DNA of 64,000 bases from Candidatus Multivorans sp. (GCA_965247095.1 OZ251997.1:1472001-1536000), one strand, 5' to 3'. Counted from the first letter of the stretch, positions 23,097 to 24,887 are shown. Translations and numbers: made by a program. The notes: generated from the letters alone by a model not told the origin.

Positions 23097-23380
23097 TCCG
23101 GAGCCGTGAGCACGCACCCGCCTGCGGCGGGGCCATAGGGGGAGGGGCCCCAGCGGTCCTTCGCGCTCGGAGGAGGATGGAAGGGGGTGCGCTCACTTCA
23201 CTCCGCTTGTATTTTGGACTTCCAGTCCGGGGAGGGTGAGATCAGGTTCTTCAAGCAGTCCGCAGCCGCCGGGCCTGTGGAGAACGCGTTGTTTTGCGGA
23301 TTTCGCTTGCATGCGTCGCAGCGAGGGTACGTCGGGCGCCGCAGCGAGTTCAGATTTTCCCCGCCGCTCGCGGGGGATGG

Positions 23381-23545
23381 CCGCCTCGGGGCCTGGCCAG
23401 GCCCCGAGGCGGGCGGCGGGTCGGACCGTTTTCACTCCGTGGGCTTCAGGCCCGGGAGCGAGCTTGGTCGGCCCGTCGCGACCCATCCTGCGCGTCCTGA
23501 ACGGATGCATGGGCTCGAGGCCCGCATAACCAACAAGCGAAGGAG
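23381..23545 (+). ncRNA. Bridge RNA (5' hairpin, target-binding loop, donor-binding loop); 5' end uncertain
   Basis: LTG ttcactccg 23431-23439, RTG ggagcgagc 23455-23463, LDG acggatgc 23501-23508, RDG acaagc 23533-23538; each pair flanks a GGGC/GCCC inner hairpin inside an outer stem. Confidence 0.85.
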
Positions 23546-23554
23546 ACCCAGGAC

Positions 23555-24523
23555 ATGGCCAACCAGAGACTACACGCGGTTGCCGGCATCGATGTAGGCA
23601 AGCACTGGCTCGACGCCCACATCGACCCGCTTGACGTAGCGCGGCGCTTCGAGAACACGCTGCCCGGCCGCCGCGCCCTGCGCAACTGGCTGCGCAGAGA
23701 GGGCGTCCGCCGCGCGGTCTTCGAACCGACCGGCCGCTACCACCGCCGGCTGCACCAGTGTCTGGCCGCGGACGGCTGTGAGACCGTCCTGGTGCAACCG
23801 GCCCGCGCCCGGCGCTTCGCCCAGGCCTTCGGCAAGCTCGCCAAGACGGATCGCGTCGATGCCGCGATGTTGGCCCGGTTCGGGCGCCTGGAAGGCCTGG
23901 AGGCCACGCCGCCAAAAACGGCTAATCTGCGCCAACTCAAGGATCTCGTGCTGATCCGGCGGCGCTTCGTCGACGAGCGCGCCGACCTGGGAAAGCTGGC
24001 GTCGGAGCTCGAATCGAAGGCCGGCCTGCGGCAGGTACGTCTGCAACTGCGCTCGCTCGACACGCGCGTCGAGGCCCTCGATGGGGCCATTCTCGCCGCG
24101 ATCGATGCCGATGAAGAGCTGAAACGCCGCGCCGAAGTGCTGCAGTCGATCCCCGGCATCGGCCCGGCCACGGCAGCCAGCCTGGTCGCCGACATGCCGG
24201 AACTGGGGAGCCTCGACCGGCGTGCCGCCGGTGCCCTGCTCGGAGTAGCCCCCTGGGCCTGCGACAGCGGCCAGCGCCAGGGCCGCCGCCACGTGCGAGG
24301 CGGCCGCGCTGCGCCGAGGCGCGCCATGTTCATAGCCGCCCTGGCGGCGATCCGCTTCAATCCCCCTCTCCGCGACTTCTACCGCAGACTCCGCGAACGC
24401 GGCAAGGAGCACAAGGTCGCCCTCGTCGCCGTCATGAGAAAGCTCGTCGTGCTCGCCAATGTCCTGCTGCAGCAAGACCGCCTCTGGTTGCCCGAACCGC
24501 CCGCGGCGACGACGCCAGCATGA
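23555..24523 (+). CDS. IS110 transposase / bridge recombinase (DEDD RuvC + Tnp20)
   Basis: GIDVGK, FEPTG, KTDRVDA, SIPGIG, catalytic-Ser motif DSG, KVALVAVMRKL. Confidence 0.96.
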   Translation: MANQRLHAVAGIDVGKHWLDAHIDPLDVARRFENTLPGRRALRNWLRREGVRRAVFEPTGRYHRRLHQCLAADGCETVLVQPARARRFAQAFGKLAKTDRVDAAMLARFGRLEGLEATPPKTANLRQLKDLVLIRRRFVDERADLGKLASELESKAGLRQVRLQLRSLDTRVEALDGAILAAIDADEELKRRAEVLQSIPGIGPATAASLVADMPELGSLDRRAAGALLGVAPWACDSGQRQGRRHVRGGRAAPRRAMFIAALAAIRFNPPLRDFYRRLRERGKEHKVALVAVMRKLVVLANVLLQQDRLWLPEPPAATTPA

Positions 24524-24549
24524 ACCCCCGAATTCACCGGCCACTAACC

Positions 24550-24555
24550 TTGACT
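24550..24555 (+). promoter_or_regulatory. -35 box in the IS110 right end (circle-junction promoter half)
   Basis: TTGACT lies 17 bp from TATTTT (23210-23215) once the ends are joined. Confidence 0.65.
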
Positions 24556-24677
24556 CCCAACACGGATGCTCGCTCCGACTTGGTGTCGGTTTGTGTGAGC
24601 ACGCGGGGCGTCGCTCGCTTCGAGCCCGCTGGGCCCCCTTCGCAGGCTGGACGTTGTCGGGCGGCCGGGTCTTCCCA

Positions 24678-24887
24678 ATGGCTGAGCGCGGCTTCGTCGG
24701 CACGTACCACCGGATGTCGCCCAAGCACTTGCACCGCTACGTCGCGGAGTTCGTGGGACGCCAGAACCAGCGCGAGGAAGACACACTCGACCAGATGCTC
24801 GACATGGTTCGCGGCATGATCGGACGACGGCTGATGTACAGCAGCCTCATTGAACCGAACGGCCTACCGTCAGGAGCGCGCCAGTGA
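24678..24887 (+). pseudogene. IS1595-family transposase C-terminal remnant
   Basis: RGFVGTYHRMSPKHLHRYVAEFVGRQN...GRRLMYSSLI. Confidence 0.88.

Follow-up and report, generated by a model that had tools for sequence, protein, structure and literature searches.

Background

The closest described relatives of the system considered here belong to the IS110 family of insertion sequences. In the published accounts of IS621 and its orthologues, the recombinase is guided by a bridge RNA, in which a 5' stem-loop is followed by a target-binding loop (TBL) and a donor-binding loop (DBL) (PMC11208160); these loops hold, respectively, a left and a right target guide (LTG and RTG) and a left and a right donor guide (LDG and RDG). 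The same accounts describe landing in palindromic repeats as typical of the family, and a promoter that is reconstituted where the two ends of the element are joined (PMC11208160). A further set of contacts involves the handshake guides, nucleotides that follow directly on the core-binding bases of the RTG and RDG on their 3' side and pair with positions 6-7 of the non-cognate DNA (PMC11208158). According to the rules reported for IS621, a gain of handshake pairs drives insertion and cognate pairing before strand exchange is inhibitory, with IS621 itself passing from 1 handshake pair to 3 (PMC13626964). Here we compare with these systems an IS110-group element found in a 64,000-nucleotide stretch of DNA (hereinafter the window) from Candidatus Multivorans sp. 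(GCA_965247095.1 OZ251997.1:1472001-1536000), which we read as an acidobacterial (Thermoanaerobaculia-type) genome.

A sequence-only reading of the window had proposed an IS110 element with a decodable bridge RNA, whose four guides match its target and donor, and with a GC core in place of the CT of IS621. On the basis of the sequence anatomy, homology, covariation and empty sites described below, we hold the bridge-RNA element itself with high confidence. The full account, namely an intact-looking IS110-group insertion sequence that moves by bridge-RNA-guided recombination across a CT core, appears likely.

Results and discussion

An IS110-group element and its recombinase

The mobile element comprises 1,363 bp (23206-24568) and is followed by a second CT at 24569-24570. 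Its open reading frame encodes a recombinase with an N-terminal DEDD RuvC-like domain (PF01548; 72.8 bits against a cut-off of 29, E 3.5e-20) and a C-terminal Tnp domain (PF02371; 61.4 bits against a cut-off of 21.3, E 1.1e-16). Sequence comparison with phmmer relates it to the protein of the IS621 structure 8wt6 (E 1.2e-28), and it also matches that of the ISCro4 structure 9t56 (E 1.6e-27, residues 3-305). Residues D13, E57, D99, D102 and S238 align with the catalytic D11, E60, D102, D105 and S241 of IS621 (the chain numbering of 8wt6 in this alignment being +2), and a DEDD/Ser recombinase of this kind would exchange strands as solved for IS621. The element has a long left end (LE) and a short right end (RE), which fits the IS110-group pattern as described in PMC11208160, and there are no long terminal inverted repeats.

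A single copy of the element is present in the 4.62-Mb genome of 67.7% GC, and its recombinase is a singleton in its own cluster at 90% identity. The closest public relatives are from metagenome-assembled genomes (MAGs) of Thermoanaerobaculia and Bryobacterales. The only other IS110-family members in the genome are two distant paralogues (C1:4034431-4034775 and C1:1058311-1058655, both on the minus strand), which show approximately 31% identity over residues 9-122 and are both open frames of 446 aa.

Guides that match the flanks and ends

The four internal words that had been read as guides are all present in the LE. The left-flank word ttcactccg (23197-23205) is repeated at 23431-23439 in the LTG; ggagcgagc (23455-23463), which covers the RTG, is the reverse complement of gctcgctcc at the right junction (24568-24576); acggatgc (23501-23508, the LDG) is identical to the right end at 24562-24569; and acaagc (23533-23538, in the RDG) is the reverse complement of gcttgt at the left end (23205-23210). 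Each guide pair encloses a GGGC/GCCC hairpin inside an outer stem. These matches go far beyond chance: among 20,000 dinucleotide-preserving shuffles of the 347-nt LE the four words were found in 34, 221, 93 and 760, respectively, and at least two of them together in 20. With CT as the most likely core, the target would read TTCACTCCG, CT, CGCTCC and the donor ACGGATG, CT, TGT, with the LDG and nucleotides 23533-23537 of the RDG predicted to pair with the joined right and left ends of an excised circle. The nucleotide 3' of the LTG, U 23440, could either wobble with the core C or close the inner hairpin.

The covariation of guides with flanks that such a reading predicts is observed across homologues. 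The set comprised 81 loci (the window and L035-L114), whose ends were located by conserved end motifs because finding boundaries by a drop in conservation failed for several clusters; 25 of the 81 lack one or more parts and are not counted in the comparison of junctions and handshakes below, and left ends were not found for L066, L096-L098 and the L054 group. In 65 loci (49 unique pairs of RTG and right target) the RTG predicts 3.82 of the first five right-target bases, versus 1.52 +/- 0.17 for permuted pairs. In 53 loci (38 unique pairs of LTG and left target) the last five bases of the LTG agree at 3.45, versus 2.03 +/- 0.15. Neither value was reached in 5000 permutations (0/5000 for the RTG and for the LTG), figures that overstate independence as the guide families are related and often multicopy. 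Agreement of the RTG by position is 0.84, 0.80, 0.80, 0.73 and 0.65, and then falls to 0.24 and 0.10, which is at chance; thus, the RTG reads five bases beyond the core across the family. Seventeen of the 24 distinct RTGs match the flank consensus in at least four of five positions, and seven do not. For the LTG, agreement declines from 1.0 at position 7, the base immediately before the core, to 0.18 seven bases out. The left-target count leaves out the window and L042, the LTGs of which have no anchoring CU, and L035, L041 and L043, in which the left-end motif is unmatched.

Three right-target positions of G025 differ from the window and its RTG matches all three. G015, in which a full-length copy 84% identical to the element occupies a different locus and has an LTG of the same form, shows one mismatch in each guide. 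On the donor side, the LDG GGAUG occurs with the end GGATG (3 distinct end pairs) and GGAAG with GGAAG (15), and the RDGs ACAAG, AAAAG and AAGAG go with the left ends CTTGT, CTTTT and CTCTT, respectively. In a related contig from another metagenome, most of the differences from the window fall at 23434-23439 and 23455-23458, i.e. in the guides.

Two loci of one Bryobacterales MAG (L044 and L045, CBDBKU010000002.1) have approximately 2.1 kb between their end motifs, compared with 1.34-1.47 kb for the others, and may carry extra sequence; their right flanks fit their own RTGs poorly.

A conserved bridge RNA scaffold

The bridge RNA is predicted to span 23381-23554 of the LE, with a 5' stem-loop, a TBL and a DBL. 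The region 23370-23555 folds with z = -6.1, and 0/200 shuffles folded as well. An alignment of the window with 26 further distinct homologous left ends (27 sequences) shows a highly conserved scaffold, in which the variable stretches are those where the LTG and RTG lie. From this alignment RNAalifold recovers the 5' stem-loop, the target-loop stem, the donor-loop stem and the donor hairpin. Over 39 pairs in five helices, 96.4% of the cells in the 27 homologues pair, versus 85.9% in shuffled alignments, and compensatory changes on both sides are seen in 18 of the 39 pairs; neither measure was reached by any of 500 shuffles, and control helices slid from their register are 34-49% paired. Among 36 distinct loops the TBL retains its inner hairpin, the stem of which takes 23 different sequences; a simple hairpin finder had mis-called it in six of these loops (L036, L039, L045, L046, L079 and L102).

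The ribosome-binding site of the recombinase gene is embedded in this RNA. The Shine-Dalgarno sequence AAGGAG (in the region 23540-23557) belongs to the second donor-loop stem, on its 3' strand, and is separated from the start codon at 23555 by the 3' strand of the basal stem (23549-23553), whose pairing is kept in the 27 homologues. With this placement, translation of the recombinase may be in competition with bridge RNA folding.

A search of Rfam 15 found no family at threshold, the sole match being to sX15 on the minus strand (23398-23552), which spans the bridge RNA on the opposite strand with 27 bits (gathering score 55, E 0.09). sX15 is described as a plasmid-borne small RNA of Xanthomonadaceae, for which an antisense partner (asX7) and 10 Stenotrophomonas maltophilia homologues are reported (PMC3300014). 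The reverse complement of its consensus carries the same ...AGCUUGG... motif 3' of a hairpin, and the Rfam entry RF02234 may represent an IS110-type bridge RNA in antisense orientation.

Landing site and unoccupied targets

Both flanks of the element belong to one repeat family, a palindromic sequence of approximately 210 bp with the element at its centre. Searches with nhmmer identified 26 matches of this repeat in the same genome, 16 of which are near full length (approximately 20 copies in our overall account), with the interrupted copy appearing as two matches (23112-23209 and 24567-24663). Copies elsewhere in the genome include C1 1696264-1696477, 4075450-4075664 and 4015236-4015444, and the family is present in congeners where looked for (e.g. 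L117:2009-2190). It may be comparable to a miniature inverted-repeat transposable element or to a large repetitive extragenic palindromic (REP) sequence.

In unoccupied paralogues in the same genome the two repeat halves are contiguous. At the orthologous locus of G016, downstream of the same dehydrogenase gene, the whole repeat is found with no element in it; this copy has inverted arms of 38 nt that are 95% complementary and separated by 106 nt, with the site located between them. The exact 17-base target site has no copy in the genome of the window, which contains three one-mismatch sites, all empty. Natural paralogous sites at genome positions 1696264 and 2416926 carry A instead of G at position 7. 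Ten unoccupied occurrences of the exact site are present in 8 of 41 congeneric genomes, several of them inside the same repeat, and a reversed control word gave 0. The element's boundaries are fixed by these unoccupied copies, both in its own genome and in congeners.

Of the six sequencing runs listed, four come from one sample that may be the source, and none is of RNA. Contigs of the runs X1 and X4 cover both occupied junctions without differences. Among the joints listed for the contigs of X1, X4, X5 and X6 none is an empty site or a circle junction, although contigs cannot show the absence of either. One X6 record joins 23207 to 24606 through 35 other letters, and looks like an unoccupied repeat copy of another organism, not the same site.

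At the orthologous locus in four further congeners (L116, L118, L120 and L122, in G026, G065, G024 and G035) the left half of the repeat is kept to ...CCGCTCGCA and is followed by different sequence, which points to a locus that has been rearranged more than once within the genus. Directly 3' of the right half of the repeat in the window, 24669-24887 (+) encodes a C-terminal fragment of an IS1595/ISXO2-type transposase, the remainder of the gene being missing. This fragment matches positions 121-153 of the 153 in the PF12762 profile with 26.2 bits, just below the cut-off of 27.

A predicted promoter at the junction of the ends

When the ends are joined, TTGACT from the RE and TATTTT from the LE are brought together with a 17-nt spacer that includes the core. 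All 18 distinct end pairs (53 loci) have the arrangement TTGAC[AT], 17 nt, TAT[GCT]TT across the junction; the -10 hexamer is partly imposed by the left-end motif, whereas the -35 hexamer and the spacing are not. No sigma-70-like promoter was found in the integrated element. Excision would therefore create a promoter that is predicted to be present only in the circle. Approximately 165 nt of LE (23216-23380) separate the -10 hexamer from the 5' stem-loop of the bridge RNA; the LE of IS621 is much shorter, and parts of this segment, e.g. 23264-23304, are well conserved with G015 and G025.

Handshake nucleotides and present mobility

In the window the G before CT is position 7 in both target and donor, and it would be read by the handshake nucleotides C 23463 and C 23538. 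At all 56 loci target position 7 pairs with the first handshake nucleotide of the DBL (as C with G at 50 loci and as G with C at 6); in the window this nucleotide pairs with the cognate DNA too. We expressed the handshake balance as the number of Watson-Crick pairs made by the two handshake dinucleotides before versus after strand exchange. In the sister clade it changes from 0 to 3 (38 loci), 0 to 4 (6) or 1 to 3 (6), while in the window and L036-L040 it changes from 2 to 3 (6 loci). As each of the two handshake nucleotides pairs with position 7 of its own DNA and also of the partner DNA, most of the insertion bias would be removed by the published IS621 rules, and judging from the handshake balance the clade of the window may be less biased toward insertion. 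We consider it quite unlikely that this clade (the window, G015, G025 and L035-L043) has gone further, either to a more reversible, excision-prone recombinase, or to an identity zone that has grown to three bases or shifted to GC.

An alternative that draws on the same features is that the element is stranded: after a single bridge-guided insertion the LTG would have lost two core-binding bases, and the handshake would pair with cognate DNA and block exchange, as such pairing inhibits IS621 (PMC11208158, PMC13626964). The handshake balance of the window relative to the 50 sister-clade loci is consistent with this, as are an LTG that ends at position 7 in the window and G015 where other members of the clade have G-C-U, the isolated position of the protein, and the single copy in a genome with three empty near-matches. 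However, the frame is open with all five catalytic residues present, and both the scaffold pairs and the two halves of the junction promoter are intact. The perfect match of guides to flanks (9/9 on the left; 6/6 plus the core on the right) argues against long decay, and the full-length copy in G015, at a different locus, has the same LTG form, which must thus have been kept or moved. Stranding of the element appears unlikely.

The core dinucleotide

The junctions read ...CCG CT TGT... on the left and ...ATG CT CGC... on the right, so that GCT is common to both, and the window alone cannot separate GC from CT. The sequence-only reading had favored GC, by which the same bridge-RNA element would have TTCACTCC, GC, TCGCTCC as its target and ACGGAT, GC, TTGT as its donor, and would represent a natural bridge recombinase with a non-CT core. 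Under this parse the LDG, RTG and RDG of the window each cover both G and C, and the LTG covers G with a possible G-U.

Against this, target position 7 is C in 50 of 56 loci and G in 6, whereas donor position 7 is always G; in those 50 insertions, all in the sister clade, whose scaffold and LDG register (...G-C-R) are the same, only CT is shared between target and donor. The base 3' of the core is A in 36 targets, C in 14, G in 13 and T in 7, and it is T in donors. In the largest family (22 aligned copies from a 23-copy cluster in one Bryobacterales MAG) a conserved block runs from CT-TTTAT to GGAAG-CT and the flanks differ. The window keeps the register of its homologues in three of the four guides (RTG-AG-C-UUGGUC, LDG ...G-C-R-UGGG and RDG ...AG-N), and the LTGs of its own-clade relatives L036, L039 and L035/L041/L043 end in G-C-U, which takes in the T as expected for a CT core. 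In the RTG and RDG, the "C of GC" occupies the published handshake position (PMC11208158), and in the DBL it is this nucleotide that covaries with target position 7 at every locus. Moreover, IS621 and related orthologues are reported to have an almost invariant T in the core, which is read by the main chain of G63 (PMC11208158); G63 of IS621 aligns to G60 in the recombinase of the window. Taken together, these observations suggest that the crossover dinucleotide is probably CT and that a GC core is decidedly unlikely. The proposed GC is best read, most likely, as position 7 plus the core's first base, the extra G being the one read by the handshake nucleotides.

Several points weigh against the account favored here, and those that concern the core speak for GC. 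With CT as the core, both of its bases pair with the RTG and RDG and only the C pairs with the LDG; the LTG of the window, like that of G015, its closest relative, extends no further than position 7 and makes no canonical pair with either base, and the four guides of the window on their own fit the GC parse more regularly. All readable insertions of the window's own clade (the window, L035-L040, L042 and L043) share GCT, so that the choice of CT for this clade rests on the register of the sister clade and the published IS621 data rather than on a discriminating junction. The end motifs used for the LE and RE of the homologues contain CT and the -10 hexamer, both of which are thus partly imposed on the comparison, and the permutation figures are inflated as stated above. 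Further, the element is single-copy and its three near-match sites are empty. Finally, the RNA and its expression, the circle, the chemistry, and movement or current activity are deduced from the DNA.

That the internal copies of flanks and ends are protein-binding subterminal repeats, or a by-product of insertion into a repeat, instead of guides is scarcely credible: although RNA guides in this organism are known from sequence alone and the target repeat has internal direct repeats (CTCC...CTCC) that raise the chance matches to the RTG word (221/20,000 shuffles), the copies occupy both internal loops of a scaffold whose base pairs show compensatory changes, and they covary with flanks across many targets, and the protein is a clear homologue of those of IS621 and ISCro4, for which RNA guidance has been solved structurally.

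Table 1. Coordinates of the element, its bridge RNA and its landing site in the window
Feature	Position	Strand	Basis
Left half of palindromic host repeat, ends with left target	23112..23205	+	nhmmer model positions 14-110; paralogue alignment
Left target bases, matched 9/9 by LTG; last base G 23205 = position 7	23197..23205	+	sequence match
Left copy of CT core (most likely reading)	23206..23207	+	junction comparison with homologues
LE, non-coding, 347 nt	23208..23554	+	sequence
TATTTT, predicted -10 half of promoter formed only at circle junction	23210..23215	+	end comparison
Bridge RNA 5' stem-loop	23381..23412	+	13/13 pairs with compensatory changes
TBL domain; outer stems 23413-23428 with 23465-23479	23413..23479	+	fold, covariation
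LTG, same sense as left target, stops at position 7	23431..23439	+	sequence match
TBL inner hairpin; GGGC/GCCC 23441-44/23450-53	23440..23454	+	hairpin kept among 36 distinct loops
RTG; 23455-23460 pairs right target CGCTCC; AG 23461-23462 pairs CT core	23455..23462	+	match, covariation
TBL handshake positions CU	23463..23464	+	register versus homologues; definition from PMC11208158
DBL domain; basal stem 23486-23490/23549-23553; second stem 23495-23498/23541-23544	23486..23553	+	fold, covariation
LDG, same sense as right end ACGGATG plus core C	23501..23508	+	match, end comparison
DBL inner hairpin; GGGC/GCCC 23511-14/23520-23	23510..23524	+	helix 5 covariation
RDG; ACA pairs TGT of left end, AG pairs CT; handshake CG 23538-23539	23533..23539	+	match, covariation
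Recombinase gene, 322 aa	23555..24523	+	domains, catalytic residues
RE, 45 nt; -35 TTGACT 24550-24555; left donor ACGGATG 24562-24568	24524..24568	+	sequence, end comparison
Right half of palindromic host repeat	24567..24663	+	nhmmer model positions 105-214
Right copy of CT core (most likely reading)	24569..24570	+	junction comparison
Right target CGCTCC	24571..24576	+	sequence match, covariation

Comparison with known systems

The element resembles IS621 of Escherichia coli, as described in PMC11208160 and PMC11208158 and in structure 8wt6, in its two protein domains and catalytic residues, in a bridge RNA that is placed in the LE with the 5' stem-loop ahead of the target and donor loops, and in the layout and strand logic of the guides. 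The handshake position, the junction promoter, the landing in a palindromic repeat and, most likely, the CT core are further features in common. The differences are also several. The two proteins are only distantly related, and the LE is 347 nt long versus 191 nt in IS621. The LTG pairs with 9 contiguous left-target bases and not canonically with the core, and nowhere in the window's family does the LDG pair with the T of the core. Target and donor share a G at position 7, with the handshake passing from 2 pairs to 3 as against 1 to 3 in IS621 (PMC13626964), and the ribosome-binding site is enclosed by the basal stem of the donor loop. The RTG pairs with 5-6 contiguous bases beyond the core, whereas that of IS621 has four bases including the core. 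The proposal that the right target guide is long therefore holds for the window, in which it matches 6 bases, but longer RTGs have already been described among IS621 orthologues (PMC11208160).

The further proposal of a distinct, intact and potentially programmable member stands in as much as this is an intact IS110-group element, whereas the class and its programmability have already been published; there is no new class here, and its special claim, a natural GC core, is most likely a misread handshake position. The locus nonetheless offers a cleanly delimited bridge-recombinase system that can be read guide by guide, from a high-GC acidobacterial lineage. Its multicopy relatives, in which guides, flanks, ends, handshake and junction promoter covary according to the IS621 model, provide independent natural support for that model, and the group is a possible source of orthologues with longer left-target pairing. 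No acidobacterial element turned up among the results of literature searches on bridge RNAs, none of which was aimed at that lineage; the bridge RNAs predicted in Durrant 2024 may include relatives.

ISCro4 (9t56), the second homologue with a solved structure, was compared at the protein level. ISPpu10 and ISPpu9 of Pseudomonas putida, which are REP-targeting members of the IS110 family, share with the element insertion into a multicopy intergenic palindromic sequence, but the repeat family and the host phylum are different. According to the ISPpu10 preprint, a stem-loop in the target adds specificity. The site described here likewise lies between inverted arms of 38 nt, a role of the hairpin being reported for ISPpu10. 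The IS1111 group with its seekRNA has the same recombinase family and RNA-guided logic (PMC11208160), but its RNA is encoded in a long RE and it has long subterminal inverted repeats. With an LE of 347 nt and an RE of 45 nt, the element of the window belongs to the IS110 group and not to IS1111.

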